A stretch of 64,000 nucleotides of DNA from an uncultured Gammaproteobacteria bacterium (GTDB lineage Bacteria; Patescibacteriota; Microgenomatia; Levybacterales; UBA12049): the NCBI GenBank assembly GCA_964408485.1, contig CAYOZJ010000001.1, positions 92,366-156,365 of the forward strand, in the 5' to 3' direction. The notes below the pieces were generated by a model. The model was not told where the DNA came from. It searched no databases and saw nothing but the letters and a program-made list of their open reading frames with translations. Position 1 is the stretch's first letter. Each line of letters begins with the position of its first letter. Shown piece by piece: positions 5,119-63,770 of the stretch. Made by a program: the position numbers and the translations under genes.

Positions 5119-5230
5119 TACCTTTGTTTTCCTCTACTAAAAATTCTTGAATTGTTATATTATTAAATTGTTATATTGTTTGAATAATTTTAGCAATTTA
5201 GCAATTCAACAATGTAGCAATGTATATCTT

Positions 5231-6232
5231 ATGCTCGAAGAATTCAAAAAACAATCCACCTTACTCAAAACCTTTCTTATTTTAGCATCCATTGCTCTCG
5301 GCATATATCTTTTTCAAATGCTCTGGGGAGTTTTGGGATTTTTCTCTGATGTACTGATTATCCTTTTTTCCGCTTGGATTGTTAGCTTTATTTTAGGACC
5401 AGCAGTAGGATTTTTAGAAAAGCGTCTTAAAATGCCAAAGATTGTTGCAGCACTTGTTGTGTATGTATTGTTTTTTGCGCTTTTTGCCGTTGCGATTATT
5501 AACTTTATTCCTGTTGTCACATCACAATATTTTGCTTTAGTTAAGGTACTACCAAAATATCAACATACCTTCCCTTATTATGTTAATCGTGCAACACAAG
5601 TTGCACTTACTACCGTTGGTAATTCTCTTACGCTTATCCCCGCAATTGGAAGCTTTTTTGTAGGACTTATTATGGTCCTTATTGCCTCCTTTTATTTTGT
5701 TGTTGATAAAGAGCGGATTAGTAAAGAAATATTTTTCCTTATCCCCAAAAAATATCATGATCAAGCATTGTATGTCCAAGAGCTTATCGATAACACGTTT
5801 GGGTCGTTTATTCGTGTGCAAATTATTTTTGGCATTATTGCAGGACTTGCAACGTGGTTGATTATGACAATTTTTGGTGTTGGCTTTGCTGCTTCCACTG
5901 CTCTTGTTGCTGGAATTTTAACAATTGTCCCTATTGTTGGCGGCCTTTTTGCACTTGTCCCCCCTGTTGCAATTGCTCTTCTTGCAGACCCATGGAAAGC
6001 ACTTTTTGTCTTAATCTCTCTTGTTGTCATGCAGCAAATAATATTCAATATTATCTTTCCCCGCGTTGTTGGTAATGCGCTAAAGCTACATCCTGTCGTT
6101 GTTATTTTTTCATTCTTTATTGGATATAAAATTGCAGGATCGTTTGGCGTTATTTTTGCCGTACCATTTATTGCTGTTATTTTTGTTATTCTCCACAGAC
6201 TCTCCCATCACTTCTTGGAAAAACAAGGCTAA
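5231..6232 (+). CDS. AI-2E family transporter (PerM/UPF0118)
   Basis: Multi-TM protein with the conserved AI-2E core. Start trimmed to the internal ATG (MLEEFKK...); the ORF-track start at 5147 is an extension. Confidence 0.8.
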   Translation: MLEEFKKQSTLLKTFLILASIALGIYLFQMLWGVLGFFSDVLIILFSAWIVSFILGPAVGFLEKRLKMPKIVAALVVYVLFFALFAVAIINFIPVVTSQYFALVKVLPKYQHTFPYYVNRATQVALTTVGNSLTLIPAIGSFFVGLIMVLIASFYFVVDKERISKEIFFLIPKKYHDQALYVQELIDNTFGSFIRVQIIFGIIAGLATWLIMTIFGVGFAASTALVAGILTIVPIVGGLFALVPPVAIALLADPWKALFVLISLVVMQQIIFNIIFPRVVGNALKLHPVVVIFSFFIGYKIAGSFGVIFAVPFIAVIFVILHRLSHHFLEKQG

Positions 6233-7876: not shown

Positions 7877-8897
7877 AAAAAGGAATTCTTGAACGATTGC
7901 AAAAAGGGGTTGTTTTAGGGGCGGAAGGATATGTTTTTGAACTTGAATGCAGGGGGATATTAAAGCAGGTCCGTATGTACCTGAAGTGGTATTGGACGCA
8001 CCAAATGCAGTCAGAGAATTAAGCAATGAATTCCTGCGTGCTGGGGCAGAAGTAATTGTTGCACTTACCTACTACGCCAACAGAAATAAATTAAAAGATG
8101 TAGGACGGGAAGGAGATCTAGAGACATTAAATAGACAAGCAGTCAGAATTGCTAATCAGGTTGCCAAAAAAGGCAACGCGCTTGTTGCAGGAAATATCTG
8201 CAATACCTGGATGTACGATCCAAATGATAAAGAAAAAAGTGGCAAGGTTGTCAGGAAAATTTATCGCGAGCAACTACAATGGGCCATGCAGGAAGGAATA
8301 GATTTTGTTATCTCAGAAACAAATGATTACTTGGAAGAAGCGCTTATTGGACTACAGGAAATAAAACGCCTTGGTTTGCCTAGCATGGTTACCTTGGCTA
8401 CTATCCAAAAAGACAAAACAGCAGATGGATATGATTATATAGAAGCATGTAAAATTCTTGAAAAAAATGGAGCAGATATCGTTGGGCTTAACTGTGATAG
8501 AGGACCAGCAACCATGCTCCCCCTTTTGAAAAAAATTAGGAAAGCAGTAAAATGTTTTGTTGCTGCACAACCTGCACCATACCGAACAACACAGCAACAA
8601 TTTACTTTCGAATCACTCAAAAAAAATGGACAGCGCATTTTCCCTCTTGGACTCGATCCTTTTCTCCTTACTCGATTCGAAATGGCAGAATTTGCTAAAA
8701 AAGCAAAAGCAATCGGTATTAACTACATCGGCAGTTGCTGTGGAACAAACCCATCTATGACACGAGCCATGGCTGAGGCTTTGGGTCGAACGGTACCTGC
8801 AAGTAAATACTCGCCTGTTTTAGATTTACACCCTGTTATTGGCAATACTATTCAAACAGACAACAAAGAATTCATTGCAGATTGGAGAGATGACTAA
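7873..8897 (+). CDS. Betaine/homocysteine S-methyltransferase (BHMT-like, Pfam S-methyl_trans) with an apparent +1 frameshift at a G5 run (7951-7955)
   Basis: Frame A from the ATG at 7873 gives [28 protein letters not shown], which matches the BHMT N-terminus ([28 protein letters not shown]). Frame B from 7947 continues (Y/D)IKAGPYVPEVVLDAPNAVRE...QVAKKGNALVAGNICNT...NCDRG...IGSCCG, which also matches BHMT. The start overlaps the upstream gene as ATGA. Confidence 0.8.
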
Positions 8898-9500: not shown

Positions 9501-10753
9501 TGAAAACGAATAAGAATTCTGATATCATTACAAGTATGCAAGTACAAACACTAAAAGGATTCAGGGATTTTTTGGGAGCTGAAGCTCGAAAAAGAAAATA
9601 TGTTATGGACACTTTCAAAAGAGTGTTTGAGTCCTATGGATTTGAGCCACTTGAAACTCCTGTAATGGAATATGAGGAGATTCTTATGGGTAAATATGGT
9701 GAAGAGGGTGATAAATTAATGTATCGGTTTGAGGATAATGGGCAAAGACGTGTTGCACTTAGATACGACCAAACTGTTCCTAGTTCCCGATTTGTTGCAC
9801 AATACCTGAATACTCTTCCCATGCCTTTCAAGAGGTATCAAATGCAAAATGTATACCGCGCCGAGAATACACAAAAAGGACGGTATCGAGAGTTTTTACA
9901 ATGTGATATTGATATTTTTGGCATTGATTCTGCATTGGCAGATACAGAAATTATTCTTACCATGATAGCGAGTTATAAAGCGCTTGGTTTTAAGAATTTT
10001 AAGATTCTTCTTAACGACAGATCTAACTTTGAAGGACTTACTACAGAAACAATTATCGTAATTGATAAGCTTAAAAAAATTGGCGAGGACGGAGTCTGTC
10101 AAGAAATGGTTGATAAAGGAATTACGAAAACTAAAGAAGAAGCGTATAACTTACTCCAATCCGTGGTTGAAAAAAAACTAACAGAAAGACTAACTGAAGT
10201 GTTTGCTCTTCTTGAAAAAGAAGGAATCGATAAAGAGACTATTGTCTTCTCCCCTACTCTAGCTCGTGGACTTGATTACTACACAGGAATGATTATAGAA
10301 ATAGAAAGTCCTGATTATCCAGTTGGATCTCTCGCAGGGGGTGGACGATTTAATAATCTTATTGGCATGTTTGCAAACAAACAAATCCCAGCAGTTGGAA
10401 TTGCAGTTGGGTTTGATAGAACAATGGAAGCAATGGAAGCATTAGATTTATTTCCAAAAAATTTAAGCGAAGCATCAGCAAAAGTATTGGTAACAATCTT
10501 TAATAAAGAATTAGAAAAAAAATCATTGGAAATAAGTTCTCGCTTACGCTCGAACAATATAAATACTGAGGTCTACCTATCTGATTCTAAAATGGAAAAG
10601 CAGTTAAAATATGCTGATCAAAAAGGAATCCCGTATGTTGTGATTATTGGTCCAGAAGAACTAGATAAAAATGTTGTAACACTTAAGGATTTAAAAAATA
10701 GAACACAAGAACAAATGACTTTAGAAAACGTTATAAAAAAGCTTAATCAATAA
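9500..10753 (+). CDS. hisS: Histidine--tRNA ligase
   Basis: Class II aaRS motifs and HisRS signatures (GFRDFLG, RYDQTVP, QCDIDIFG, GGGRFNNL). C-terminal anticodon-binding domain. Confidence 0.95.
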   Translation: MKTNKNSDIITSMQVQTLKGFRDFLGAEARKRKYVMDTFKRVFESYGFEPLETPVMEYEEILMGKYGEEGDKLMYRFEDNGQRRVALRYDQTVPSSRFVAQYLNTLPMPFKRYQMQNVYRAENTQKGRYREFLQCDIDIFGIDSALADTEIILTMIASYKALGFKNFKILLNDRSNFEGLTTETIIVIDKLKKIGEDGVCQEMVDKGITKTKEEAYNLLQSVVEKKLTERLTEVFALLEKEGIDKETIVFSPTLARGLDYYTGMIIEIESPDYPVGSLAGGGRFNNLIGMFANKQIPAVGIAVGFDRTMEAMEALDLFPKNLSEASAKVLVTIFNKELEKKSLEISSRLRSNNINTEVYLSDSKMEKQLKYADQKGIPYVVIIGPEELDKNVVTLKDLKNRTQEQMTLENVIKKLNQ

Positions 10754-10798
10754 ATTCTGGATGCATCGCCTAAACGACTTACCAGAATGACCATGTCG

Positions 10799-11749: not shown

Positions 11750-11818
11750 CGTCATTGCGAGCAAAACGCGAAGCAATCTTATAAGATCGCCACGGGAATT
11801 CCTGTTCCCTCGCGATGA
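11750..11818. repeat. Intergenic copy of the ~70-bp palindromic element (TIR GTCATTGCGAG...CTCGCGATGAC)
   Basis: Same terminal inverted repeats as the in-frame copies inside nadE, nadD and dnaX. Confidence 0.7.
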
Positions 11819-11822
11819 CAAA

Positions 11823-11861
11823 AAGAGATCCTTCGACTCTGTTTCACTTCGCTCAGGATGA
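11823..11861. repeat. Short repeat of the family GAGATCCTTCG...GCTCAGGATGAC
   Basis: Related copies at 43975-44008, 48205-48232, 60555-60625 and 63003-63032, plus a hairpin variant at 58490-58545. Confidence 0.65.
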
Positions 11862-11870
11862 CAACAGTAT

Positions 11871-12779
11871 ATGAAAAAGGCGAAACTTGGAATTCTTGCT
11901 CTTATCGTTGCAACTATTATCTGGGGAGCTGGTGCGCCAATTTTTAAATGGGCGCTTGTTGGAATTGCTCCCGAGCTCTTGGCATTTTTCCGTTTTGTCA
12001 TTCCGGTTATTCTTTTACTACCGTTTGCAAAGCATATCCAAAAAGTAAGACCTAAAGATTTGCCATTTATGCTAAGTCTTGGGATTGTTAATTGTGTTTT
12101 TAACATAGGACTCTATTTCTTAGGCCTATCTTTTGCACCAAGCATTAATCAATCAATTATTGCTTGCGCTGGACCTATTTTTATTATTATTGGATCCAGT
12201 ATTTTCCTTAAAGACAGGGCAACAAAGAAAATTTTGCTTGGTAATATTATTGGTCTGACTGGTGTCTTATTTATTGTTTTTCAACCAGTCAGAGGAATTA
12301 GTACACCCCTCGCACTTTTAGGCAATACACTTTTTATTCTATCTACTTTTTCCGCATCTATGGGTACCATACTGTCGCGAAAATTGGCTGAGCGCTATAA
12401 CCCGATAACGCTTATTTTCTGGAGCTTTTTAGTTGCAAGCATCTGCATGTCTCCATTTTTCTTTCATTCCCTTGCCAACAACACACTCATGAGTAGCATC
12501 AACACAAGAAGCCTGGTTGGCATCTTTTTTGGAGGGATTTTCTCTTCATTTACAGCATACTTATTATTCTATTTCGGGCTTCATTACATAAAGGCATCAG
12601 AAATCACCATTTTTACCTATATTGACCCTGTGGTAACTGTCCTTATTGCAGCTCCTCTTCTTCATGAATATCCTAATCTCATCTTTATTTTGGGCGCATT
12701 TTTGGTCTTTTTTGGCATTTTTGTGGCTGAAGGACGCATTCATTACCATCCGATACACAAGCTTTTTACCAAAGCTTGA
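11871..12779 (+). CDS. EamA/DMT family transporter (divergent paralogue of the upstream gene)
   Basis: Ten TM helices and EamA repeats. Divergently arranged with 10799..11704. Confidence 0.75.
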   Translation: MKKAKLGILALIVATIIWGAGAPIFKWALVGIAPELLAFFRFVIPVILLLPFAKHIQKVRPKDLPFMLSLGIVNCVFNIGLYFLGLSFAPSINQSIIACAGPIFIIIGSSIFLKDRATKKILLGNIIGLTGVLFIVFQPVRGISTPLALLGNTLFILSTFSASMGTILSRKLAERYNPITLIFWSFLVASICMSPFFFHSLANNTLMSSINTRSLVGIFFGGIFSSFTAYLLFYFGLHYIKASEITIFTYIDPVVTVLIAAPLLHEYPNLIFILGAFLVFFGIFVAEGRIHYHPIHKLFTKA

Positions 12780-12830
12780 ATTTCTAATTTCTAATTCCTA
12801 ATTTTTAATCAATTCCCAAATTTTCAATAC
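12780..12830. repeat. Partial copy of the TAATTAGGT-arm intergenic element
   Basis: TTTCTAATTTCTAATTCCTAATTTTTAATCAATTCCCAAATTTTCAATAC is near-identical to the left half of the element at 53375-53500. Confidence 0.55.
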
Positions 12831-15352: not shown

Positions 15353-15473
15353 TTTGGAGATGCGGGGAGGAATTAAACCTCCGTCTTTTGTCTTGCGGAC
15401 AAACGCCTTAACACTTGACTACCGCATCACAAGCATTATACCAAGAATATAGCTATTTGCCCATAAAAGATTT

Positions 15474-19138: not shown

Positions 19139-19274
19139 AGTTCTCGACTTCCCGACTCGGTACTAGTGCTCGATTCAGCATTTTCCTCGCCGAGGTGGCG
19201 TTCGCCAAACTGTCGCACACGTTCGCTCGAACAATAAACCTTTCTTTACGCTTTACGCTTTACCATTTACGCTT

Positions 19275-20159
19275 TTAAAATTCTCCCACAAAACTAATTT
19301 CTGGTTCCATTTCTAAACGCAGCTGGTCTCGTACAGTCTGGATTACTAAAGTAATAAGTGCTCTTACATCCGCTGCGGTAGCATTCCCTAAATTCACAAT
19401 AAAATTTGCGTGAGTCAGAGAAATCTGAGCACCTCCAATTATTTTTCCTTTAAGTCCTACTTTTTCAATAAGTCTCCCTGCCCCATACCCTTCTATTTTT
19501 TTAAAAATTGACCCTGCACTGCATTGTGTGGCATTTTTGGGATGTTTTTCTGCTCTCCATGCAACATTGTCATCAATTGTCTTTTGGATTGTTTCTTTCG
19601 TACTTGGTGTCAGACGAAATGTTGCTGATAAAACAATATCGCCACTAGTATGCAAAATGCTTTTATCGTATTCAAATGCAAAATAACCTTTTGTTACAAT
19701 ATCTGTCGTGCCATCTTTAAAAAGGAGACTTGCGCTATCCAAAATATCGGCAATATAGAGTGTTTTACTTCTATCAGGACTTAAAAAATGAAGATTTTGC
19801 CATAGCGCACCTCCAACGGTTGATGGAATCCCAGCAAAATGCTCGAGTCCTGAAAGACTCTGCTCTTTTGAAGCTTCAATTAAATTTTCTATTGTCGCGC
19901 CTGATTGAGCAATGAGAAGATTCCCAGCAAACTCATATTCTTTTGCTTCATTTTTAATTACTAGTCCTCGAAACCCTTTATCACTCACCAAAATATTTGC
20001 ACCACTTCCAAGAACAAAAACTTGTTGGTTATTCTTTTTAGCGAAGGAAAGCGCCTCTTTTAACTCGTCTAGTGTAGTTGTTGTGACAAAATAATCTGCA
20101 GGACCACCAATGTGAAATGTTGTGTATTGGGCAAGAGGAATATTTTGCTGCATTTGCAT
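19275..20159 (-). CDS. murB: UDP-N-acetylenolpyruvoylglucosamine reductase
   Basis: FAD-binding PCMH domain at the N-terminus (TTFHIGGPADYF...VLGSGANIL). Conserved MurB C-terminal domain. Confidence 0.9.
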   Translation of the reverse strand: MQMQQNIPLAQYTTFHIGGPADYFVTTTTLDELKEALSFAKKNNQQVFVLGSGANILVSDKGFRGLVIKNEAKEYEFAGNLLIAQSGATIENLIEASKEQSLSGLEHFAGIPSTVGGALWQNLHFLSPDRSKTLYIADILDSASLLFKDGTTDIVTKGYFAFEYDKSILHTSGDIVLSATFRLTPSTKETIQKTIDDNVAWRAEKHPKNATQCSAGSIFKKIEGYGAGRLIEKVGLKGKIIGGAQISLTHANFIVNLGNATAADVRALITLVIQTVRDQLRLEMEPEISFVGEF

Positions 20160-26796: not shown

Positions 26797-27942
26797 TTAG
26801 CTCCCTATTTTAAATTCAACTACGTCGCCGTCTTTCATTATGTAATCTTTTCCTTCGAGCCGTGCTTTTCCTTTTTCTCTAGACCCCTTCCAACCATTTT
26901 GATCAACAAAGTCCTCATACCCAACAACTTCTGCTTTAATAAATTTCTTTATAAAATCTGTATGAATCTCCCCTGCTGCTTCTGGCGCACTACTTCCTTT
27001 TCGTATTGTCCAAGCCCGCACTTCTTTTTCCCCACAAGTCAAAAAACTTATTAGACCTAACTGCGTATAGGCTTTTTGTATCAAACGCTCTAAGCCCGAC
27101 GCGCTAAGCCCTAAGCCGGCAAGGTATTCTTTTTGCTCATCATCCGAAAGACCTGCTAATTCAGATTCAATTTGCGCACAGATGACAACAATATTGTCTA
27201 CCCCAATGTCATTCCCGCGCAGGCGGGAATCTAGGGAACTGGATCCCTGATCGGAGTCAGGGATGACAGCAGAAAGTAATGAACGATACTCTCTCGTTAC
27301 TTTTTCAATTCCTTCAGGATTATATTGTGATTCACTCACGTTTAGGACAACTAACTCAGGCTTTGAGCTTAGCAGGAATAGCTCTCTTATTGCTTCCCTT
27401 TCTTCCTCGCTAAGATCCATTGCCCTCACCGGTACCCCTTGTTCTAATAGCTTTTGGACTTTCTCATGATTTGCGTTTTTTACTTTGCGATTTACATTCT
27501 GCAGAGTCTGCAGGTCAGCAAGCATAAGCTCAGTATTAATGACTTCATAGTCAGATTTTGGATCTACAGCACCTTCCTTAATAACATTCTCGTCTTCAAA
27601 CGCTCTGACAACATGCGCAACAACCGACACTTCTTTAATGTGCCCTAGGAATTTATTGCCAAGTCCTGCTCCCTCTGATGCACCTTTCACAAGTCCTGCA
27701 ATATCGACAAATTCAACAGTTGCAGGCTTGAGTGGTGGCAATTCACTCATCTTTTCTTCTTCTTTGGTAATCTCAGCAAGCTTGTTAAGTCGCGGATCTG
27801 GCACGGCAACAATCCCTACATTTGGCTCAATAGTTGCAAAAGGATAATTTGCAGCTAACGCTTGCTGCTTTTTAAGAAGCGCATTAAACAATGTAGATTT
27901 TCCTACATTCGGAAGACCGACAATCCCAACACTCAAGTTCAT
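26797..27942 (-). CDS. ychF: Ribosome-binding ATPase YchF (Obg-family GTPase)
   Basis: G1 motif GIVGLPNVGKSTLFNAL. TGS domain C-terminus (DFIKKFIKAEVVGYEDF...VVEFK). Carries an in-frame 60-bp repeat insert. Confidence 0.92.
   Translation of the reverse strand: MNLSVGIVGLPNVGKSTLFNALLKKQQALAANYPFATIEPNVGIVAVPDPRLNKLAEITKEEEKMSELPPLKPATVEFVDIAGLVKGASEGAGLGNKFLGHIKEVSVVAHVVRAFEDENVIKEGAVDPKSDYEVINTELMLADLQTLQNVNRKVKNANHEKVQKLLEQGVPVRAMDLSEEEREAIRELFLLSSKPELVVLNVSESQYNPEGIEKVTREYRSLLSAVIPDSDQGSSSLDSRLRGNDIGVDNIVVICAQIESELAGLSDDEQKEYLAGLGLSASGLERLIQKAYTQLGLISFLTCGEKEVRAWTIRKGSSAPEAAGEIHTDFIKKFIKAEVVGYEDFVDQNGWKGSREKGKARLEGKDYIMKDGDVVEFKIGS
27208..27267. repeat. In-frame 60-bp hairpin-rich insert within ychF (TIR GTCATTCCC...GGGATGAC)
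   Basis: Encodes DSDQGSSSLDSRLRGNDIGV on the minus strand. Contains hairpins CCCGCGCAGGCGGG and CCCTGATCGGAGTCAGGG. The termini are inverted repeats related to the other GATGAC-ended elements. Confidence 0.7.
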
Positions 27943-41128: not shown

Positions 41129-42658
41129 TTAGACAAATCCTGGAAAGAAATCTTTCTTTATGTGGAATTGAGAAATACCAATTTCCTTAAGCGTTTTTTC
41201 AAATCCCACAACCATACCATGTGGACCGGACAGATAAAAGAGTCTCTCTGTAAAATCTGGAATTTCTTTTCGTATCATATCAGGAGTAATTCTCCCAACC
41301 TGCCCTTTCCAATTTTTTGGCACACTGTCTATATCGGTAAGTGTGTAGATTGTTTTTACTCCAATTTTTTCGCCAATTTGGAAAACATTTTTATACATTA
41401 TTTCCGAATCCGCTTTATTGGAATACATAAGGATAATATCTCGCTTTTCGTCACTATCTATACAATATTTAATCATGCTTCTGAAAGGTGTTATTCCTAT
41501 ACCACCGGCTATAAAGACAAGCTTTTTCTCTAACGACTTTGGCAATGTAAACTCACCACCAAGACTTCCCACTGTAATACTGTCTTTGTCTGAGAGATGG
41601 TGCAAAGCGCGCTTAAAACTACTCCCATTTTCATAAAATTTTACTCCCAAATGAATTGCATTTTCTGTTGGAGAAGATGCAACAGTAAAATACCGCCTGT
41701 TTCCCCTGCTGTCAGTGCTCGGGTGCTTAAGTGTCCACTCCATGTATTGTCCTGGCATAAAGTGAAGCTTTTCTTGAGACGCAAAAACAAATTCCACTTC
41801 GTCTGCACCATATTGTGTTTTTTCTTTCAAATGCAACAGAAGCTTTTGTTTAGGACTTACAATATACGAAAAAATATTTGCAACAACTAATGTTAGCTCT
41901 GGTGAAGAATAAAAAGCGCCAACATGGATATGTGGATCAATAAGCAAAACAACTATTGTCCCGTATACTACTTGTAACAATTTTGTTGGTGGAGATGTAA
42001 GTGGTTCTGTTAACATAACAGTTGCAAAAAATACAATTGCAGAATCTAAGAAAAGTGAAGTAACACTGCTATACATAGGTGTCCCCTGCCAAATTGCAAA
42101 GAGAATAGTTATACCAATAACTCCGAGAAGAAATACAGAAATAAGAATAACTTTTTGAAGTTTTTTAAGGATAAGAAATCCGCCAATAGCGACAAACGGC
42201 AACATAACCGCAGTTCCAATCCACCAACTTGCATATCTCCCTAAAATAAATGCTGTTAAAACAACAGCAATTGCCGCGGGATTAAAAAGATGCTTTTTTT
42301 TGATTGCTAAAATATATTTTGACGCCATGGCAAAAACGCCAGCAAAAATAAAAAATGGAATATCCCTGACAGAAGTCATGGGAGTAATAATAAAAGTGAG
42401 AATAAGTGCGGTAATGTATACAGATTCTACATTCGTTGGCGCTTTAAAAAGGAATGCAAGTATCTTATTGCTTATCCAACAAACAATTGTCAAGAAAAGT
42501 GAAGAAAGTATGAGCGCACCTGGTGAGTAGGAGAGTAATCCACCATATGAAAGGATTGCTGCACACGCTACCCAACCAATTAAAACATACAGCACTACAC
42601 GGTACATGGTAATTCTGTCTAAAAAATTATCTAAAAGATTCAACATAAAAATCGTCAT
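41129..42658 (-). CDS. Fusion protein: RnfD/NqrB-like polytopic membrane domain plus C-terminal FNR-like FAD/NAD(P)-binding oxidoreductase domain
   Basis: N-terminus has KHLFNPAAIAVVL and MLTEPLTSPP, resembling the RnfD/NqrB FNPA and TDPVT motifs. C-terminus has FNR motifs RRYFTVASSP (RxYS), GGIGITP and SGPHGMV. Confidence 0.65.
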   Translation of the reverse strand: MTIFMLNLLDNFLDRITMYRVVLYVLIGWVACAAILSYGGLLSYSPGALILSSLFLTIVCWISNKILAFLFKAPTNVESVYITALILTFIITPMTSVRDIPFFIFAGVFAMASKYILAIKKKHLFNPAAIAVVLTAFILGRYASWWIGTAVMLPFVAIGGFLILKKLQKVILISVFLLGVIGITILFAIWQGTPMYSSVTSLFLDSAIVFFATVMLTEPLTSPPTKLLQVVYGTIVVLLIDPHIHVGAFYSSPELTLVVANIFSYIVSPKQKLLLHLKEKTQYGADEVEFVFASQEKLHFMPGQYMEWTLKHPSTDSRGNRRYFTVASSPTENAIHLGVKFYENGSSFKRALHHLSDKDSITVGSLGGEFTLPKSLEKKLVFIAGGIGITPFRSMIKYCIDSDEKRDIILMYSNKADSEIMYKNVFQIGEKIGVKTIYTLTDIDSVPKNWKGQVGRITPDMIRKEIPDFTERLFYLSGPHGMVVGFEKTLKEIGISQFHIKKDFFPGFV

Positions 42659-42725
42659 TCTGGCTTGTCCAGAATCTGATCATACAGAAAGATCCTGGAT
42701 GCGCTCCGCTTACCAGGATGACAGT

Positions 42726-43922: not shown

Positions 43923-44033
43923 GTTGTTCCATTATTCTAAAAATCCTTTATGAATGCAAGATGAAAAATGAAGATGAGATCCTTCGTTATCGCTCAGGAT
44001 GACAAAAGAATTTTAAAATTATAAATCCTTTTG

Positions 44034-48037: not shown

Positions 48038-48226
48038 GAAGAGTGAATAAATGACTCAGGGGGATTCCTCGCAAACTTGTCGAGGAAGGGGTGAAATCCC
48101 CCGAGGAATGAGTGAACGATGAAAGCACAAAACGAGGCTTGGCAGGAGGCTTTGGTACTTTCGCCGGAACGAAAGTACGGAAAAAGAAAATTATTTAAGT
48201 CTTTATATCCTTCGACTCTGCTCAGG

Positions 48227-48640
48227 ATGACAAAATATACTGTTTTAGATATAATCATACCCATGACAATTGATGAAATTAGACATGCATTTGGGGGCAG
48301 GTTGGTTGGGACAAAGATTCTGAAAGAAAATGTTTGCGAGGTTGTTGCCCTTCTTCCCCAGGATTTACAGGAATATGTAACAGAATATGTGTGGTTTGTG
48401 GGATCTATGGAGGATGCATGGGGATACACCTTTACCGGCAATGATCTAGCAGACCAACATTTAATTTTCTTGGGCGACGATCTACTCCGAGAGGACAAAG
48501 ATCAAATTCACTGGTCTATTGCTCATGAAATAGGACATGTTGTCCTAGGACACAAAAATAATATTTTTGTAAAACAAAGTAAGGTTGCTATTGGTCATCA
48601 GGAAGAAGAAGCAGATGAATTTGCCAGTAAGTACGCGTAA
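48227..48640 (+). CDS. ImmA/IrrE family (DUF955/COG2856) zinc metallopeptidase-like protein
   Basis: HEIGHVVLGH followed by E..EADEFASKYA matches HExxH...E..A..FA. Start trimmed to the ATG inside the upstream repeat copy (MTKYTVLD...). Confidence 0.55.
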   Translation: MTKYTVLDIIIPMTIDEIRHAFGGRLVGTKILKENVCEVVALLPQDLQEYVTEYVWFVGSMEDAWGYTFTGNDLADQHLIFLGDDLLREDKDQIHWSIAHEIGHVVLGHKNNIFVKQSKVAIGHQEEEADEFASKYA

Positions 48641-51244: not shown

Positions 51245-52645
51245 TTATTTTTTATTTACCCTCGGACCATCTTTACCGTCCATAACATCAAAGCCTAAGT
51301 CGCTTATTTTCTTTCTCAGCTCGTCAGATGCCTTATAATCCCCTGCTTTTCGAAAAGTCTCTCTTTCTTTGAGTAAGTCCTCAACATTCTTTGGTATCTT
51401 TACGCTTTCCGCTTTACGCTTTCCGCTTGCGAGGCCTAAGCCTAAAATGCGATCCATTTCCAAAAGCGTTGCCTTTTTTTCGCCAGGATTAATAATGCGC
51501 TTTGTCATATCCCACACAATACTCAATGCTTTTGCTGTATTTAAGTCGTCGTTAAGAGCTTCCATAAATTGCTCTATCCAAAAAAGATTTGGTGAAGCAG
51601 TAGGATCATTGGTAATATGAGATCGTAATTTCTTAAGACTACTTGCTGCAGCGTCCAAACTTTCCCAGGTAAAATTCATTTCTTGTCTATAATGCGTTTG
51701 TAAATATAAATAACGAAGGCTGAGTGGGTCATACCCTTTTGCAACAACATCCTCCACTGTATAAAAATTACCCAATGACTTACTCATTTTCTGACCTCCA
51801 ACAACCAGAAAATTATGGTGCACCCAGTAATTAACAAATTTCTTGCCCGTTGCAGCCTCAGATTGCGCTATTTCATTTGAATGATGAATTGCAATATGAT
51901 CGATTCCACCTGTGTGAATATCGAGCGTTGGCCCAAGCGCTTTCATGGACATTGCACTACATTCTATATGCCACCCTGGGAAACCCACTCCCCACGGACT
52001 ATCCCATTCCATTTGACGCTTTCCTTGCCCTGAGCCTGCCGAAGGGTCATCTTTGGGAGAAAACTTCCAAAGAGCAAAATCACTAGCATTTTTTTTGCCT
52101 TCAATAAAATCTACTCGTGCTCCTTTTTGCAATTCATCTGGATTTTGCCTGGACAATGCAAAGTAATTTTTAAATTTTGATGTATCAAAATAAATTCCAT
52201 CAGACAAACGGTATGTATATCCTTTCTCTTCTAATTCCTGCACTAATTTAATTTGTTCTTTAATATAATCTGTTGCATGCATGAGATCTTTAGGTAAATC
52301 TATATTAAGCAACTTGCATGAATCTTTAAACTGCTCTTCAAACATTTTTGCAACATCCCACACAGACTTACCAAATTTCTTCGCACCTTTTTCCATTTTA
52401 TCCTCCCCTGTGTCACTATCACTTACTAAGTGACCAACATCGGTAATATTCATTACATGGTGTACTGAATACCCATTTGCTTCCAAAACCCGAATAAGGA
52501 TATCGTCCCAAACGTAACGCCTCATATGCCCAATATGCTGATAGTCATAGACTGTTGGCCCGCAAGAATACATAGCCACTTGTAGTGGCTTTAGTGACTT
52601 AAATTCCTCAACGCTTCTTGTTAATGTGTTATAAATTCGTAACAT
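51245..52645 (-). CDS. cysS: Cysteine--tRNA ligase
   Basis: HIGH (HIGHMRRYV) and KMSKS motifs, and Zn-binding Cys residues. Class I aaRS. Confidence 0.95.
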   Translation of the reverse strand: MLRIYNTLTRSVEEFKSLKPLQVAMYSCGPTVYDYQHIGHMRRYVWDDILIRVLEANGYSVHHVMNITDVGHLVSDSDTGEDKMEKGAKKFGKSVWDVAKMFEEQFKDSCKLLNIDLPKDLMHATDYIKEQIKLVQELEEKGYTYRLSDGIYFDTSKFKNYFALSRQNPDELQKGARVDFIEGKKNASDFALWKFSPKDDPSAGSGQGKRQMEWDSPWGVGFPGWHIECSAMSMKALGPTLDIHTGGIDHIAIHHSNEIAQSEAATGKKFVNYWVHHNFLVVGGQKMSKSLGNFYTVEDVVAKGYDPLSLRYLYLQTHYRQEMNFTWESLDAAASSLKKLRSHITNDPTASPNLFWIEQFMEALNDDLNTAKALSIVWDMTKRIINPGEKKATLLEMDRILGLGLASGKRKAESVKIPKNVEDLLKERETFRKAGDYKASDELRKKISDLGFDVMDGKDGPRVNKK

Positions 52646-53374: not shown

Positions 53375-53500
53375 AAAAATTTCTAATTTCTAATTACCTA
53401 ATTAACCTAAAGAAATCCCAAATTCCAATTTCTAACATTTTGTCATTGGTGCTTTTTTAGAAATTAGGGTAATTAGGTAAATTAGGTTAATTTTCTTTAA
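53375..53500. repeat. Intergenic ~120-bp element with TAATTAGGT-rich inverted-repeat arms
   Basis: Arms CTAATTACCTAATTAACCTAA / TTAGGGTAATTAGGTAAATTAGGTTAATT. Its core is homologous, in inverted orientation, to the element at 57437-57555. Confidence 0.65.
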
Positions 53501-54308
53501 TGTAAGGCACATGATGTTTAAAGTTATTTTTATCAACAAATCCTAAGACTTTTTTAACGATCTTTTCATCAATTCCTGATGCAACAATTTCTCCATTCGT
53601 CATCCCTTCATCAAACGCACGGTACAAAATTTTGTCTGCTTCTGCATAAGAAAATCCAAATTCATTTTCATCTGCTTGCGAATCCCAGAGCCCTGCAGAA
53701 GGAGCTTTTTCTACAATTTCTTTCGGCACACCTAAATATTTTGCCATTTCCCATACCTGCGTCTTATACAACCCTCGTATTGGCTCAATATCTGATGCCT
53801 CATCTCCAAAACGTGTAAAGTACCCTAAATAGTGCTCACTCTTATTTTCTGTCCCAACTACGAGTGCTTCCAGCTGCTTTGCCAAATCAAATAGATAAAT
53901 CATGCGGACACGTGCCATCATATTGCCTTTGCGCACAGCAAATATGTCATTGCGAGGAGCTTGCGACGCGGCAATCTCTTCATTTGTATTAGATTGCTTC
54001 GTTTCACTCGCAATGACGTCAACTGCACTTTTAATATCCCTCACAAAAATATGATCTTCTTTAAGACCAGCAGCCTCCACTACCATTTGTCCATGCTGGG
54101 AAGACTTTTGACTCATTTCCCCATAGGGCAAAAGTACGGCATAGACATTTTCTTTTCCTAATGCCTTTACTGCCAAGAAAAGTGATGTTGCACTATCCAC
54201 TCCACCTGACACAGCAAGAATAACACGGGAAAAACCCGCAGTTACTACTGTTTGACGAATCCAGGCAATAATCTCCTCTGATTTATTTTTGTAATCAAGA
54301 TCGTTCAT
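53487..54308 (-). CDS. nadE: NH3-dependent NAD+ synthetase, carrying an in-frame repeat insert
   Basis: PP-loop SGGVDSA and the conserved NadE core. 24-aa insert VIASETKQSNTNEEIAASQAPRND. Confidence 0.9.
   Translation of the reverse strand: MNDLDYKNKSEEIIAWIRQTVVTAGFSRVILAVSGGVDSATSLFLAVKALGKENVYAVLLPYGEMSQKSSQHGQMVVEAAGLKEDHIFVRDIKSAVDVIASETKQSNTNEEIAASQAPRNDIFAVRKGNMMARVRMIYLFDLAKQLEALVVGTENKSEHYLGYFTRFGDEASDIEPIRGLYKTQVWEMAKYLGVPKEIVEKAPSAGLWDSQADENEFGFSYAEADKILYRAFDEGMTNGEIVASGIDEKIVKKVLGFVDKNNFKHHVPYIKEN
53946..54017. repeat. 72-bp palindromic element in-frame within nadE
   Basis: TIR GTCATTGCGAG/CTCGCAATGAC. Internal sequence is identical to the copy in nadD and ~90% identical to the copy in dnaX. 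Confidence 0.85.
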
Positions 54309-54358
54309 TGTTAAATGATTAAATTCTTAAATTATTAGCAATATAGCAATTTAGCAAT

Positions 54359-54994
54359 TTAAGAATATAGCTTGTGCTCTATTATATACTTTTCTACACT
54401 TTCAGGCACAAGTCCTGTGATTGATTGACGATCTTTGATTAGATCCCGAATCCGTGTTGCACTATCTTCGAGTGGCACATAATTTGGATCTGTAATAACC
54501 GTTGCATTGCTGGGTGCATTTTCTACAGAAGAGCCTTTGCGAGCAACGACAAGAAAATGTACTTCTTTAAGAAGCTCTTCCCAGTGTGTCCACTTGTGAA
54601 ATACATTCATATTGTCTGACCCCACAACAAAAACAAACTCATGCTCTGGGTATTTCTGACGTAATCTTCGAACAACGGCTATTGTTTCTGTCGCTCCTCC
54701 TATTTCTACTGGTGTCATATCCACCTTCAAAGTGTCATTGCGAGGAGCTTGCGACGCGGCAATCTCTTCATTTGTATTAGATTGCTTCGCTTTGCTCGCA
54801 ATGACGGAAGAAATTGCCAACTCAGCCATTGCTTTTCTGTCTTTTGCAGATGCAACAATTGGCCGCCATTGATGCTGATTCTCTACGCTAAGCCATACCT
54901 CATCTGCCAAACCAATTTTAAGAACCTCTTTTGCAACAGCCAAGTGACCATTATGGATAGGGTCAAATCGTCCACCAAAAATCGCGACCTTCAT
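54359..54994 (-). CDS. nadD: Nicotinate-nucleotide adenylyltransferase, carrying an in-frame repeat insert
   Basis: MKVAIFGGRFDPIHNGH (the HxGH nucleotidyltransferase motif). Insert IASKAKQSNTNEEIAASQAPRND. Start trimmed to MKVAIF. Confidence 0.85.
   Translation of the reverse strand: MKVAIFGGRFDPIHNGHLAVAKEVLKIGLADEVWLSVENQHQWRPIVASAKDRKAMAELAISSVIASKAKQSNTNEEIAASQAPRNDTLKVDMTPVEIGGATETIAVVRRLRQKYPEHEFVFVVGSDNMNVFHKWTHWEELLKEVHFLVVARKGSSVENAPSNATVITDPNYVPLEDSATRIRDLIKDRQSITGLVPESVEKYIIEHKLYS
54734..54805. repeat. 72-bp palindromic element in-frame within nadD
   Basis: Same TIRs and core as 53946-54017. Confidence 0.85.
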
Positions 54995-57437: not shown

Positions 57438-57555
57438 AATGAATTGACCTAATTACTCTAATTGATCTAATTAACCTAATCAAGCACCAATTTAAAAATT
57501 TTGTCATTAGGATTTCTTTAGAATAATTAGAAATTAGGTGAATTAGGTTAATTGT
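57437..57555. repeat. Intergenic ~120-bp element with TAATTAGGT-rich inverted-repeat arms (second full copy)
   Basis: Arms CCTAATTACTCTAATTGATCTAATTAACCTAAT / ATTAGAAATTAGGTGAATTAGGTTAATTG. Core GCACCAAT...TTTTGTCATT..GGATTTCTTTAG is shared with the 53375-53500 copy. Confidence 0.65.
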
Positions 57556-58451: not shown

Positions 58452-58533
58452 CATATGTAAAACAAATTTCCTTCGACGCACTACGTTTGCTCAGGAAAAA
58501 TTTATCCCTGAGCGAAGTCGAAGGGTCTCCAAT

Positions 58534-58815
58534 TTACTGTCCTCCCATAAGGCCTCCTAAGCCTCCTCCCATTTGAGAAAGTTTTTTGGCTGCGATTTCT
58601 TGAGATTTTTTAATTGCTTCATTGATACAATCTTTAACATCGTTGTCAGACCTACCATTGGTATTAATACTTACAACTTTCTGGTCTCCTGTCATAACAA
58701 CAGTAACTCCTGATTTTTCAACGGTTATTTGCTCAGCTTGCAACGCTTTTTGAATTTGCATTGCCTGATCTCGCATTTTCTTTAAATCTCCTAATTGTTG
58801 AAATGGATTTAACAT
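58534..58815 (-). CDS. ybaB: Nucleoid-associated protein YbaB/EbfC
   Basis: 93 aa with the conserved YbaB core and a Gly-rich C-terminus. Sits in the canonical dnaX-ybaB-recR order. Confidence 0.85.
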   Translation of the reverse strand: MLNPFQQLGDLKKMRDQAMQIQKALQAEQITVEKSGVTVVMTGDQKVVSINTNGRSDNDVKDCINEAIKKSQEIAAKKLSQMGGGLGGLMGGQ

Positions 58816-58956
58816 ATATCTTACATCACCCCACCTTCTGTTTTAAATGTCATTCTAAATTTTATTCAAAATCTATTCAAAAAATATATTGCTACATTGC
58901 TAAATTGCTAAATGACTAAAGACAACAATTTAATAATTTAAGAATATAACAATTAT

Positions 58957-60453
58957 TTACTTCTTTAATTCTACCACCACACGAAGCTGTTTGCCAGTTA
59001 TCTCCCGTACTACTTTTTCTAGAATCTCAACTATTTGTGCTTCTCCAAGTTTTTCTTTATGAAATGCGTATGCTGTCTGGAGTACCAACTGAGTATCGGT
59101 AAGAGATTTTACCGTGCAACCTCTGAGTACTCCTGCAACAGAATGATTGTAAGGCTTTACCTTATAAATAAGATTCTCAAGCAAAACGCTCGTATCTTTA
59201 ATATCTTTTGGTAAATCTGTTTGAGTACTTGTTGACTCCTCCTTTTTGGGAGCAACCGGCTTTACACCGCTTAATACTTGCTTTACTTTAAGATTCTGCT
59301 CTTTTTTAAGCATGTCTTTCATGGTATTCCGGTCATTGTGAGGAGCTAAAGGCGACGCGGCAATCTCTTTATCCGTATTAGATTGCTTCGTTTCACTCGC
59401 AATGACAGCGCCTTGCTGACACCACACAACCACAGCTAATTCTAAAGGAAGGGATGGAATAGGGGCATATTTGGTACCTTGATACGCCTCCTCAAATAAG
59501 GGAATGAGTATTTGCATATCTGAAAGAGAAATTTTTATATCGCCCGTGCTATTTGTATTTCCTATTTCCCTTAGTAGTCTCTTATGCAAGTCTGACAAAA
59601 TTTGATAGAGGAAGAATTTTACATCTGTTCCTTCTTCAACAACTTGACTGACTACCTGAAGCGTAGCCTTTGCATCTTTTTTAAGAAAGTTTTCCATAAA
59701 ATCATGAAGATGAGGAAGAATATTCGTTGTTTTAAATGAAGTTTCAAAAACCTCTTTCGTAATCTTTTTTCCATTTGATAATGCAACAACTTCTTCTAAA
59801 ATTTTGGTTGTATCTCTGTATCCCCCATCTCCCATTTCTGCTATTAACCCAAGCGCTTCATCATCTATATCTATTTTTTCCTCTTTTACAATTCTTTTTA
59901 ATGCATGAGTTAGCTCTTCTTTGCTTGCTCTATTTAGAGAAATATGAAAACATCTGGAGATAATGGTTGCGGGGACTTTTTGCGGCTCTGTTGTTGCAAA
60001 AATAAAAACCACATGTGCTGGGGGCTCTTCAATTGTCTTAAGAAGTGCATTAAATGCTTCGTTGGTAAGCATATGCACTTCATCGATAATATAAACTTTT
60101 TTCCGACTAGCGCTTGGTGCTAGATTAACCCGTTCGCGAAGCTCTCTAATTTCATCGATGCCTCTATTGGATGCACCGTCAATTTCCAAAACATCAATGT
60201 TTGATCCATTGGTAATACTTACACATTGGTCACACTCATTACATGGTTCTATACCGTTACGCTTAGAACTTGTACAGTTGAGGACTTTGGCAATGATTCT
60301 GGCAGTTGATGTCTTCCCAAGTCCCTTGGGACCGGTAAATAGAAAGGCATGAGGGATTTCTTTTTGAGACAAAACTGCTGTTAGGGTCTCTCTGAGCTTT
60401 GGACTATCTAACTCTGCAATTGTTTGGGGACGGTATTTTCTGTAGTAAACCAT
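58957..60453 (-). CDS. dnaX: DNA polymerase III subunit gamma/tau, carrying an in-frame repeat insert
   Basis: AAA+ Walker A GPKGLGKTS, zinc module CNECDQC, SRC/sensor motifs. Insert VIASETKQSNTDKEIAASPLAPHNDRN between domain III and the C-terminus. Confidence 0.92.
   Translation of the reverse strand: MVYYRKYRPQTIAELDSPKLRETLTAVLSQKEIPHAFLFTGPKGLGKTSTARIIAKVLNCTSSKRNGIEPCNECDQCVSITNGSNIDVLEIDGASNRGIDEIRELRERVNLAPSASRKKVYIIDEVHMLTNEAFNALLKTIEEPPAHVVFIFATTEPQKVPATIISRCFHISLNRASKEELTHALKRIVKEEKIDIDDEALGLIAEMGDGGYRDTTKILEEVVALSNGKKITKEVFETSFKTTNILPHLHDFMENFLKKDAKATLQVVSQVVEEGTDVKFFLYQILSDLHKRLLREIGNTNSTGDIKISLSDMQILIPLFEEAYQGTKYAPIPSLPLELAVVVWCQQGAVIASETKQSNTDKEIAASPLAPHNDRNTMKDMLKKEQNLKVKQVLSGVKPVAPKKEESTSTQTDLPKDIKDTSVLLENLIYKVKPYNHSVAGVLRGCTVKSLTDTQLVLQTAYAFHKEKLGEAQIVEILEKVVREITGKQLRVVVELKK
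59332..59406. repeat. 75-bp palindromic element in-frame within dnaX
   Basis: TIR GTCATTGTGAG/CTCGCAATGAC. About 90% identical to the nadE and nadD copies. Confidence 0.85.
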
Positions 60454-60682
60454 AGTAATTTGTCATTCTGGGTTTTTCATTTTGTCATCCCGGACTTGAT
60501 CCGGGATCCACTCCTTTTTCTGGATTCCTGCTTTCGCAGGAATGACGCTTAATGAGATCCTTCACTCGACTCAGTATTTGCTTCACCGAAACGGCACACT
60601 TCGTTCAGGATGACAGAGACGAAGCATGATTTAGGATACTACAAAAGGAGGGGTATTAAAAGATTGCAAAGTGTATCGAAAA
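60454..60682. repeat. Cluster of at least four hairpin/MITE-like repeat units upstream of dnaX
   Basis: TTGTCATTCTGGG; TTGTCATCCCGGACTTGATCCGGGAT hairpin; ATTCCTGCTTTCGCAGGAATGAC hairpin; GAGATCCTTC...TTCAGGATGACAGAGACGAAG hairpin. Confidence 0.65.
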
Positions 60683-62188: not shown

Positions 62189-62371
62189 AAATATTACACC
62201 TCCCCCGTTAGATAGTCCCGTTAGGACATCTAACGGGGCCACATGAGATGTCTCAAGACTATCTCATTGTGGCTAAAATCTATCCTTTTTGAAGCTTGAA
62301 TTGCCTTATTATAGCATATGAATGTGGAAAACTAAACGTTCTTAACGCTTGACGCTTTACCCTTTGCGCTT

Positions 62372-62695
62372 TTATACTGCTTTTCCCATTGGTCCCATTA
62401 AATGGACATGAAAATGATCGATTTGCTGTCCCCCTCCACCATTTGTTGAAAGCCTAAATCCTGTCTCAACAAGATTAAATTCTCTTACCATGTTTTGGGC
62501 AACCTCACGGATTTTGTTCCAAATCATTTCCTCATCCAATGCTAAAAGATCGATAAAATGCTTTTTGGGGACAATAAGTAAATGTGTTGGCTTAAGTGGA
62601 TGAGTATCTGGGAAAACCATAATATCCTCGTCTTCGTAGGTAAAATCTTTTGGTTCTATGTGGTTGGCTATTTTGCAAAAAATACAGTCATCCAT
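62372..62695 (-). CDS. HIT family (histidine triad) hydrolase
   Basis: C-terminal HFHVHLMGP histidine-triad motif. Confidence 0.85.
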   Translation of the reverse strand: MDDCIFCKIANHIEPKDFTYEDEDIMVFPDTHPLKPTHLLIVPKKHFIDLLALDEEMIWNKIREVAQNMVREFNLVETGFRLSTNGGGGQQIDHFHVHLMGPMGKAV

Positions 62696-62816: not shown

Positions 62817-63770
62817 TCAAGTCTTTTCCAAGACTTTTACGATTTCGTCTAGACTCAATCGTGTTGGAACCATTTTGGGATTTTTTGGTGTACCATTTAA
62901 AAGCATTTTATTAGACACGTGTAAAAACCATGTTGCCTCAGGATCCATTTTTTCAAGCTGATCTCTTACTAAAGACAAATTAATATCAGGGACATTGTCA
63001 AACAAATGAGATCCTTCGCTTCGCTCAGGATGACGAGGGGGTGCGGGCACTGCTTTTATACGCACATACCCTTTTCGTGGATCGCGTCTTATAACCACTA
63101 CATATCCCATCTTTTGCGCAAGCTTAATAACGCTATCGTTAATTGTTTCTAGCGCAAGTCCTTTTCCCCATTTTGTTGTAAATTCTCTGCCTTTGTCTAT
63201 TTCTTTCTCTGCCCAAATGCGACTTTCAAATCTCTTAAGCATTGCGTCTAAAATCTCCATTCCCCAGCTTACAAAAAATTCGTCATTATCTGGATGGAGT
63301 CCTTTCATTCCCTCTAGAATTCCATATAGACTAAATTCATGAATATCAGATCCTGCATCTGGCCAAAAAATCTCCTGAAAATGATCAAGACTTACAATAT
63401 AACTAACAATGCGCTCCATGGCAGCAATTTTATCTTCTCTTTTGCCATCTGACGTTGTTGCGTGAAGCGCTGGATTTTCTTTAACAACATACTCCCAGCA
63501 TCTACTTGTACTGCAAATATTGGTGTCATAAATTTGATGATGATCAAGAGGTGTAAGACCAGTATCGACGTGGATTATTTTGGTATCGTCTGACTCAACA
63601 ATGATTTGTGTATCTGCTTCTTTTTCTTTTCGCAAAACTCGTGGACTTCTCTGTCCTGCTGGGACAAATTCTACTTTTGCATTATCCCATCCAGGTAAAA
63701 ATCTTTTAAGAATCCAGACCGATCCAATGGCATCCCAATCAGGAGATGCGTGTGCAATGATAACGTGCAT
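62817..63770 (-). CDS. DHH family phosphoesterase (NrnA-like nanoRNase/pAp phosphatase), with an in-frame short repeat insert
   Basis: Motif I HASPDWDAIGS and motif III IIHVDTGLTPLDHH. The repeat GAGATCCTTCGCTTCGCTCAGGATGAC (63003-63032) encodes PERSEGS inside the ORF. Confidence 0.75.
   Translation of the reverse strand: MHVIIAHASPDWDAIGSVWILKRFLPGWDNAKVEFVPAGQRSPRVLRKEKEADTQIIVESDDTKIIHVDTGLTPLDHHQIYDTNICSTSRCWEYVVKENPALHATTSDGKREDKIAAMERIVSYIVSLDHFQEIFWPDAGSDIHEFSLYGILEGMKGLHPDNDEFFVSWGMEILDAMLKRFESRIWAEKEIDKGREFTTKWGKGLALETINDSVIKLAQKMGYVVVIRRDPRKGYVRIKAVPAPPRHPERSEGSHLFDNVPDINLSLVRDQLEKMDPEATWFLHVSNKMLLNGTPKNPKMVPTRLSLDEIVKVLEKT

Follow-up and report, generated by a model that had tools for sequence, protein, structure and literature searches.

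A 64,000-nucleotide stretch of a Patescibacteriota genome (GTDB lineage; assembly GCA_964408485.1, contig CAYOZJ010000001.1, positions 92,366 to 156,365; hereafter the window) contains a family of short oriented repeats, one of which, the copy first reported, lies in frame within a gene for a DHH-family phosphoesterase. The repeats are genuine. In sequence they are a new variant on a type of hairpin described in 2025, and they show an unusual in-frame habit, like that of the Rickettsia palindromic elements (RPEs), in a genome of the candidate phyla radiation. We consider it likely that they belong to the Ssn-related family of single-stranded DNA (ssDNA) hairpins, similar to the Neisseria repeat NTS, and that they are present here as nuclease-less solo units and pairs which spread, or spread in the past, from hairpin–ssn–hairpin cassettes, ssn being the gene for a small GIY-YIG nuclease. 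A preliminary description of the window had noted a same-orientation repeat family at six or more sites and had offered two interpretations, promoter- or terminator-associated modules and mobile mini-elements. It saw one subfamily only, and missed the hairpin architecture, the wider superfamily and five other in-gene insertions.

The exact 12-mer GCTCAGGATGAC of this reported subfamily had four matches in the window, all on the plus strand (11851, 43992, 48220 and 63023), and none in 100 dinucleotide-preserving shuffles; the bipartite form ATCCTTC-N5-35-TCAGGATGAC likewise had four matches versus none. When up to two mismatches were allowed in the 12-mer, the enrichment was weak (8 matches versus 3.4 expected). 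Read on the opposite strand, the copies have the form GTC–AT-CCT–GAGC...GA–AGG-AT–C. A fifth copy (60554-60614) has diverged, with one mismatch per arm and a longer core of 41 nt, and at 48204-48231 the 5' arm is decayed. Every copy that had been cited earlier was present, displaced by about 5 nt at most, and the four exact copies do share one strand; the sixth copy (58490-58545) is a degenerate inverted (head-to-head) pair of the subfamily.

The reported subfamily is one variant of a wider family of hairpins. A generic scan for GTC followed by a stem of at least 7 bp and a C gave 13 matches versus 9.9 in shuffles, no better than chance, and the rule GTCAT-N3...N3'-ATC was therefore used instead. 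Under this strict rule the window contained 20 units, against a mean of 2.55 (maximum 8) in 200 shuffles, and degenerate copies brought the total to about 24 oriented hairpin units, spread over 13 loci. Every unit follows a plan that consists of GTC, a stem arm AT-NNN, a variable core, the arm N'N'N'-AT and a C. The stem triplets vary by subfamily (TGC/GCA, CCT/AGG, CGC/GCG, TCT/AGA, TCC/GGA and CCC/GGG), while the flanks are constant: GTC stands 5' of the palindrome in 21 of 21 well-formed units and is preceded by a pyrimidine (T or C) in 20, and a C follows the stem directly in 20 of the 21, with a pyrimidine as the next base in all (T in 18). The degenerate copies at 48204 and 10751 are without the 3' C. 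Three arrangements were found, namely solo units, three-unit clusters (11751-11862 and 60484-60614) and head-to-head pairs of 60-74 nt with their GTCAT ends outward, and one such pair, a 74-nt repeat, has two copies in neighbouring genes that are 96% identical. The loci, together with the host gene of the reported copy, are as follows.

63008-63034, minus strand: reported copy, a solo hairpin GTCATCCTGA-GCGAAGC-GAAGGATC(TC), encoding RHPERSEGS in the DHH gene
62817-63770, minus strand: host gene, a DHH-family phosphoesterase of 317 amino acids; the insertion is in a loop that is hypervariable among relatives
60554-60614, minus strand: reported subfamily, core of 41 nt (GTCATCCTGAAC...GTGAAGGATC), the third hairpin in a cluster of three upstream of dnaX
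60521-60546, minus strand: perfect 8-bp-stem hairpin GTCATTCCTGCGAAAGCAGGAATCCA, NTS class; DNA fold -7.8 kcal/mol, z -3.9
60483-60511, plus strand: perfect-stem hairpin GTCATCCCGGACTTGATCCGGGATCCA, which fits the published search pattern discussed below
48204-48231, minus strand: reported subfamily, degenerate (GGATA end, not GGATC), at the 5' end of an ImmA-like open reading frame (ORF); its ATGACA end is a -35-like hexamer
43976-44003, minus strand: reported subfamily, intergenic, between an FMN_bind gene and its upstream neighbour
11825-11862, minus strand: reported subfamily with an 18-nt core, ending 9 nt before the ATG of an EamA transporter gene
11783-11819, minus strand: related unit GTCATCGCGAG...GTGGCGATC, middle of a three-unit cluster
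11751-11780, plus strand: related unit GTCATTGCGAGCAAAACGCGAAGCAATC
58490-58545, unstranded: between ybaB and prs, a degenerate head-to-head pair that belongs to the reported subfamily and has its GTCAT ends lost
53946-54017, unstranded: head-to-head pair of 72 nt (GTCATTGCGAG...ATC, spacer, GAT...CTCGCAATGAC) that lies within NadE and encodes VIASETKQSNTNEEIAASQAPRND in frame
54734-54805, unstranded: 96%-identical copy of the NadE pair, in frame in a NadD-like gene
59334-59406, unstranded: diverged copy (77%) of the NadE/NadD pair, in frame in dnaX
27207-27267, unstranded: head-to-head pair in frame in ychF, with the left unit TGTCATTCCCGCGCAGGCGGGAATCTAG
4750-4823, unstranded: head-to-head pair in frame in an M24 (Xaa-Pro) peptidase gene
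42654-42722, unstranded: spacer from apbE to the next gene, filled by a head-to-head pair whose GTCAT end overlaps the ATG of that next gene
10751-10791, minus strand: degenerate solo unit (AATT end, not AATC) between two convergent genes

The GTCAT strand was the minus strand in eight of the nine solo units (10751, 11783, 11825, 43976, 48204, 60521, 60554 and 63008) and the plus strand only at 11751. Since the minus strand is both G-rich throughout the window, where the cumulative GC skew falls steadily, and the carrier of most genes, a replication-strand bias and a transcription-strand bias of the solo units are inseparable here.

The old dRS3 repeat forms part of the Neisseria NTS, CGTCATTCCCGCGMAVGCGGGAATCYRG, which has been generalised as the Ssn-related motif (SRM) (Chenal et al. 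2025, PMC11893778). NTS/SRM hairpins are bound and cut by SsnA, a 94-amino-acid GIY-YIG nuclease that acts on ssDNA only and on one strand only, and ssn genes are typically bracketed by the motifs (PMC11893778). The GTC upstream of the palindrome is most critical for cutting and the C just after it for binding; biochemistry has been published for the Neisseria and Wolbachia Ssn/hairpin pairs only (PMC11893778). The window units show the features of an SRM, that is, a hairpin-forming inverted repeat of 20-50 nt, an orientation-giving GTC after a non-G base, and a 3' C followed by a pyrimidine, and their conserved flanks are the very positions found critical for cleavage (GTC) and binding (3' C). 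Of the 28 positions of the NTS consensus, 27 are shared by the unit at 27207-27234 in ychF. The published search pattern, HGTCWYN(0-2)YYVSBRHN(0-5)WNVSBRGN(0-2)RNCYNB, fits only this unit and that at 60483-60511 among the approximately 24 units (0.06 expected); it is an operational search tool and not a biological definition.

Like NTS/SRM hairpins, then, the family consists of oriented hairpins with GTC just upstream and C just downstream, brackets a nuclease gene of about 95 amino acids with its GTCAT ends outward, and has hundreds of orphan copies, often clustered, in many phyla. It differs from them in that the reported subfamily has only five Watson-Crick pairs, in addition to tandem G·A mismatches and a core that is either GCGNAGC or variable, that its partner nucleases carry K or R where NTS-class partners carry W, that about half of the window loci are intragenic, against only 2% in N. 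meningitidis (PMC11893778), and that the 64-kb window holds no nuclease gene.

The association with the nuclease was seen in other genomes. The pattern GTCATCCTGAGC-N3-33-GAAGGATC was scanned in one genome per species, and the matches listed place the reported subfamily on at least 120 genome stretches; more than 15 phyla are represented, with five Patescibacteria among the sources. Small GIY-YIG genes were found at only three of these listed matches (L114, L009 and L092), and each adjoined such hairpins, which stood on both sides of the gene in L114 and L009 and on one side in L092. Pfam PF01541 was found in the L114 and L092 proteins, and the PF01541 proteins were 93-115 amino acids long. 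A metagenome scan with two of the three GIY-YIG proteins as queries yielded 80 loci. A GTCWY-hairpin-C unit was located within 150 bp of the Ssn-like gene in 66 of the 80, on both sides in 48, and 35 of these 48 doubly flanked loci had the outward-GTCAT arrangement. Hairpin density was 6.13 per kb near the Ssn-like gene and 0.31 per kb beyond 300 bp. The exact reported subfamily occurred at 14 of the 80 loci, the commonest stems being ATTCTGAG and ATCCTGAG, and other genes of this protein set (L155, L161 and L200) have the canonical NTS stem ATTCCCGC on their flanks. Genes for four-helix-bundle (23S intervening sequence) and GxxExxY proteins, which are said to be bracketed by hairpins as well, did not stand out between hairpin pairs in the part of the retrieved loci that was inspected.

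The proteins were compared according to the class of hairpin that flanks their genes. The W of an RxWK motif was present in 12 of 12 nuclease genes flanked by perfect-stem (NTS-class) hairpins and in none of 46 in the G·A-loop class, which have K or R instead. This residue is located before the final K of the C-terminal motif RE[KR]xxKx[WF]xRxXK (L122-L201). Overall protein identity was nearly equal with respect to hairpin class (0.593 versus 0.579), and only the single-residue split was clear.

The hairpin pattern was also observed on at least 120 viral contigs (IMG/VR, L205-L324), some of which are possibly prophage or host DNA. Viral loci with more than one copy had a single orientation in 18 of the 22 listed, for example six on the plus strand in L279 (927-3780) and five on the minus strand in L281 (6263-13885). 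Phages could serve as a vehicle for spread across phyla.

By the homologues of its DHH and NadE proteins, the window belongs in Patescibacteria. Comparison with close relatives, which had been proposed in the preliminary description, demonstrated that copies are polymorphic in presence and absence, both at the DHH site and at the cluster upstream of dnaX. DHH orthologues at 81-84% identity have 305 amino acids and are without the inserted segment. At this site the relatives have 19 nt where the window has 55 nt, which is not a clean cut-and-paste footprint. In relative L202 the cluster of three hairpins upstream of dnaX is missing, only half of the dnaX insert remains at the orthologous position, and the spacer that holds the 58490-58545 pair in the window has a different sequence. 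Relatives also bear on the nuclease gene. In L203 an intact 95-amino-acid GIY-YIG gene (8267-8554; Ssn-like profile, E = 6e-35) lies beside the DHH locus and is bracketed by GTCATCTCGAG... and GTCATTTCGAAC... hairpins, and in L327 a 91-amino-acid GIY-YIG gene (33-308) lies beside the DHH locus, the contig end cutting its upstream hairpin. Relatives L202 and L325 have no GIY-YIG gene at the proS–DHH position. The window counterpart of the position occupied in L203 and L327 falls just past base 64000.

The stem of the reported subfamily was assessed by covariation in a set gathered with the pattern GTCAT-N3-GA...GA-N3-ATC, which imposes no pairing. The N3 arms were fully complementary in 125 of 149 distinct sequences, with at least 10 triplet types, whereas after shuffling of the partners the average was 21 and the highest count 37. 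The subfamily has five Watson-Crick pairs, and its core consists of two tandem G·A mismatches that enclose a GCGNAGC mini-hairpin, or else of an insert of greater length. Its canonical core is GA–GCGAAGC–GA, and GCG(N1-2)AGC fits 35-43% of the distinct cores. Since the commonest 7-nt cores are GCGNAGC and ACGNAGT, the closing pair of the core covaries as well. The 5'-GA/3'-AG mismatches that flank the core form stable sheared pairs. GCGNAGC DNA itself is an unusually stable mini-hairpin with a melting temperature of 76.5 °C, which standard thermodynamic models miss (PMC13037366). The core of the reported copy is exactly GCGAAGC, the mini-hairpin of Hirao (reviewed in PMC13037366); that, however, is a structural motif and not a repeat family, and here it is placed inside a longer stem with conserved flanks and is often swapped for a longer insert. 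Perfect-stem units fold at -8 to -9 kcal/mol with z of -4 to -5, and the z scores of the perfect-stem units and the 72-nt pair range from -3.9 to -5.5. Covariation and the core sequence support hairpin formation by the solo units of the reported subfamily.

Six loci lie inside genes that are genuine by Pfam (M24 peptidase, YchF, NadE, NadD-like, DnaX and DHH), all of them in frame, and the hairpins add 9-24 residues. The in-frame copy in the DHH ORF had been recognised correctly: 63008-63034 reads RHPERSEGSH within 62817-63770 (minus strand). Compared with solved homologues, YchF, NadE, the M24 peptidase and NadD have extra unaligned segments at the element sites, and the DnaX copy sits beyond the conserved part of the protein. 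By eye, four of the six frames of the reported unit are open, TGA occurring in the remaining two, and the ATGAC end of the unit offers an ATG, which helps explain both the in-frame survival and the apparent tie to gene ends.

NadE was compared with its 120 closest homologues. About half of them have no insert in the loop concerned, and the rest have loop peptides derived from different hairpin classes (for example VIASETKQS...AASQAPRND, VILNESEGS...DSSQAQND, VILSETKD and VIPAKAGIQ). At the DNA level the loop is occupied by a GTCATTGCGA... pair in L325 (10304-10375), an NTS-class pair in L326 (3954-4013) and a GTCATCCTGAAC... pair in L327 (9019-9126). Three hairpin classes in one loop, and none in about half of the homologues, point to an insertion hotspot or rapid turnover.

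The RPEs appear to be the closest precedent for this in-frame habit. In the account given in PMC10969869 (after Ogata 2000), they are about 100-150 bp, were described in Rickettsia, and are palindromic repeats in frame in unrelated housekeeping genes of a reduced genome, where they add peptides and do not destroy the proteins. The window units, in contrast to what that account gives for RPEs, measure 25-74 nt and extend across phyla, and the likeness is one of in-frame habit. No nuclease partner of RPEs was found in the literature searched, and the search for a link between palindromic in-frame elements and GIY-YIG proteins found nothing relevant besides the Ssn paper. In L008, a Rickettsiales metagenome-assembled genome, a long ORF (about 4083-5375) that by eye resembles the phenylalanyl-tRNA synthetase beta subunit starts with hairpin-derived VIPNAQAEGSKDSSPMARND; in-frame copies would thus occur in a Rickettsiales genome also, which bears on the RPE comparison.

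Given these observations, we propose the following course of events for the Ssn-related hairpins. When DNA becomes single-stranded, during replication, transformation or the entry of phage DNA, the GTCAT strand would fold, and a small one-domain GIY-YIG nuclease (Ssn) would bind the folded strand and cut a few bases upstream. The units occur in hairpin–ssn–hairpin cassettes, and the far commoner nuclease-less solo units and pairs are most likely non-autonomous derivatives. In the compact Patescibacteria genome, units fill intergenic spacers, and at six loci they persist in frame within housekeeping enzymes, in loops that tolerate them. The architecture with its covarying stem, the association with Ssn-like genes (in relatives as well), the presence/absence polymorphism and the in-frame insertions are observed. 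Recognition and cutting of the reported subfamily by Ssn are inferred; mobilisation of the units, by Ssn or anything else, and any host benefit are putative.

Several results weigh against this proposal. None of the five reported-subfamily copies fits the published SRM pattern. Nearest-neighbour DNA folding gave the solo units of the subfamily only -1.5 to -2.7 kcal/mol, with z about 0.3, and because the folding model rates these units like shuffles, their structure rests on covariation and on the literature about G·A mismatches and mini-hairpins. No Ssn-like ORF was detected within the 64-kb window by a family hidden Markov model (best E = 0.33; positive controls, 1e-25 to 1e-44), nor was any GIY-YIG gene found there by regular expression, or by Pfam on the small ORFs near the repeats (YbeY, HIT, YbaB, FMN_bind and ApbE). 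Elsewhere, the reported subfamily is rarely inside long ORFs (1 of 27, low-GC loci); considering this and the 2% in Neisseria, the in-gene habit is atypical and looks particular to this compact genome. The W versus K/R residue may be a specificity determinant or just a clade marker. Finally, the authors of the Ssn paper liken the system to insertion sequences and to repetitive extragenic palindromes with their associated tyrosine transposases (REP/RAYT), but mobility is not demonstrated and Ssn-driven transposition is a hypothesis there (PMC11893778).

That last comparison raises the possibility that the repeats are themselves REPs or bacterial interspersed mosaic elements (BIMEs) that owe both their origin and their movement to an IS200/IS605-family tyrosine transposase associated with REPs, which we regard as very unlikely. 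Both kinds are short, oriented, ssDNA-acting hairpins, often in clusters of alternating orientation, that bracket the gene of a presumed enzyme; the strand bias of the solo units (8 of 9 on the G-rich strand) would suit a REP, and the analogy is drawn in the Ssn paper itself (PMC11893778). However, the gene bracketed in 66 of 80 metagenomic loci and in relative L203 encodes a GIY-YIG protein, in contrast to the Y1 (HUH-type) transposase fold, and no Y1 transposase was noticed beside any element examined, although no search aimed at Y1 transposases was made. The conserved 5' flank is GTCAT and not GTAG/GTGG, the tetranucleotide that REPs are said to carry since the work of Nunvar in 2010. REPs also differ in being lineage-specific and extragenic.

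It is likewise highly improbable that the repeats are transcription modules, that is, intrinsic terminators, attenuators or promoter parts, as the preliminary description had suggested. The intergenic copies do lie next to gene starts and ends as stated there, but this is trivial, because the elements nearly fill very short spacers. One of the approximately 24 units was flagged as terminator-like; no T-tract follows the stems, however, and the solo stems are weak. In the window, neither terminator-like sites (18 versus 14.1±4.2) nor promoter-like sites (65 versus 53.3±6.8) were enriched, six loci are inside ORFs, and the same sequences are present in more than 15 phyla with different promoter types. 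One point in favour is a promoter-like match of 11/12 at 48227-48255 (plus strand), ATGACA-17-TATAAT, whose -35 hexamer is the ATGACA end of a repeat copy. If this site is used, the ImmA-like gene would start at the ATG at 48263, not at 48227 or 48119; the ATG at 48227, within the repeat copy, may supply the start codon as first described, being in frame with the ImmA-like ORF, but that ORF is also open upstream to 48119. The other early interpretation, mobile mini-elements, fares better, with polymorphic copies, two 74-nt copies that are 96% identical, and hairpins that in other genomes stand on both sides of a nuclease gene, an arrangement resembling an insertion sequence.

It is extremely unlikely that the repeats work at the RNA level, as a structured motif of transcripts that might, for example, signal processing or stability. 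In favour of this reading, the stem covaries, most solo copies are on the sense strand of the surrounding operons, and the core resembles a GNRA-like loop. Rfam gave no match to the elements, the only match in the window at the gathering threshold being tRNA-Cys; head-to-head pairs place one unit antisense, either orientation occurs in divergent spacers, and the tight link is to the gene of a DNA nuclease, Ssn, which does not bind RNA (PMC11893778). A hammerhead-like reading of CUGAGC...CGAA was rejected by eye, as the core positions do not fit.

Ordinary MITEs (miniature transposable elements with inverted repeats) of a DDE-transposase insertion sequence, with the hairpins as terminal inverted repeats, have just as little probability. 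The 60-74-nt pairs have perfect inverted ends (GTCATTGCGAG/CTCGCAATGAC), and prokaryotic MITEs such as Correia and ERIC resemble the units in being small and non-autonomous, in having inverted ends and in lying occasionally in frame within genes. However, no target-site duplication or direct repeat was found around any pair, single arms occur alone, are themselves hairpins and each look functional, and the full-length form carries a GIY-YIG gene of 90-100 amino acids and no transposase, and a DDE-transposase parent is lacking. Chance similarity of low-complexity sequence, which the preliminary description would have read from copies limited to the window and which the weak enrichment of the mismatched 12-mer might recall, or an assembly artefact, is of negligible probability, since exact and bipartite matches were four against none in shuffles, the same 25-mer recurs both in genome stretches and in viral ones (at least 120 of each), and a second, independent assembly (Logan, same sample; L121) carries the identical in-gene DHH copy. 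At least one direct test speaks against each of these rival explanations.

Apart from the hairpins, the window contains short tandem arrays with units of 7-9 nt, which recur mostly in spacers near gene ends, and one RNA gene.

19244-19275, 51398-51428 and 62341-62372: CTTTACG
5189-5221, 54336-54371 and 58888-58913: TAGCAAT(T/A)/ATTGCTAA
53462-53492 and 57532-57553: AATTAGGT(T/G)
12779-12809 and 53378-53395: AATTTCT
15355-15428, minus strand: tRNA-Cys (GCA), the only RNA gene in the window by Rfam and ARAGORN

In relative L202, AGAAATT repeats were observed upstream of dnaX.

Peptides such as VILSEAKDL, HPERSEGS and RSFASLRMT clutter the predicted proteins of many metagenomes, and they can now be named and given a candidate enzyme partner. 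The Ssn/hairpin system gains a class of sequences overlooked by the published pattern, and its range now takes in the candidate phyla radiation. If Ssn recognises the reported class, the mini-hairpin core and the K/R-versus-W residue would be handles on specificity and useful for ssDNA tools, and the mobility of the cassette, left open in the Ssn paper, becomes testable. A further idea, which we advance tentatively and hold to be possible but rather doubtful, is that Ssn-type hairpins are a pan-bacterial counterpart of the RPEs and that, in Patescibacteria, they have settled in frame again and again in the same permissive loops of essential enzymes, at least three unrelated classes having done so in NadE. 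If this is true, insertion would be targeted to existing hairpins or ssDNA-prone sites, and would not reflect one old insertion that has drifted, and the G·A/mini-hairpin class would be a separate Ssn specificity class, marked by K/R for W in the C-terminal RxWK. The in-frame copies indicate that ultra-small genomes tolerate repeat-derived loops in essential enzymes, which affects annotation, the alignment of orthologues and views of protein evolution.

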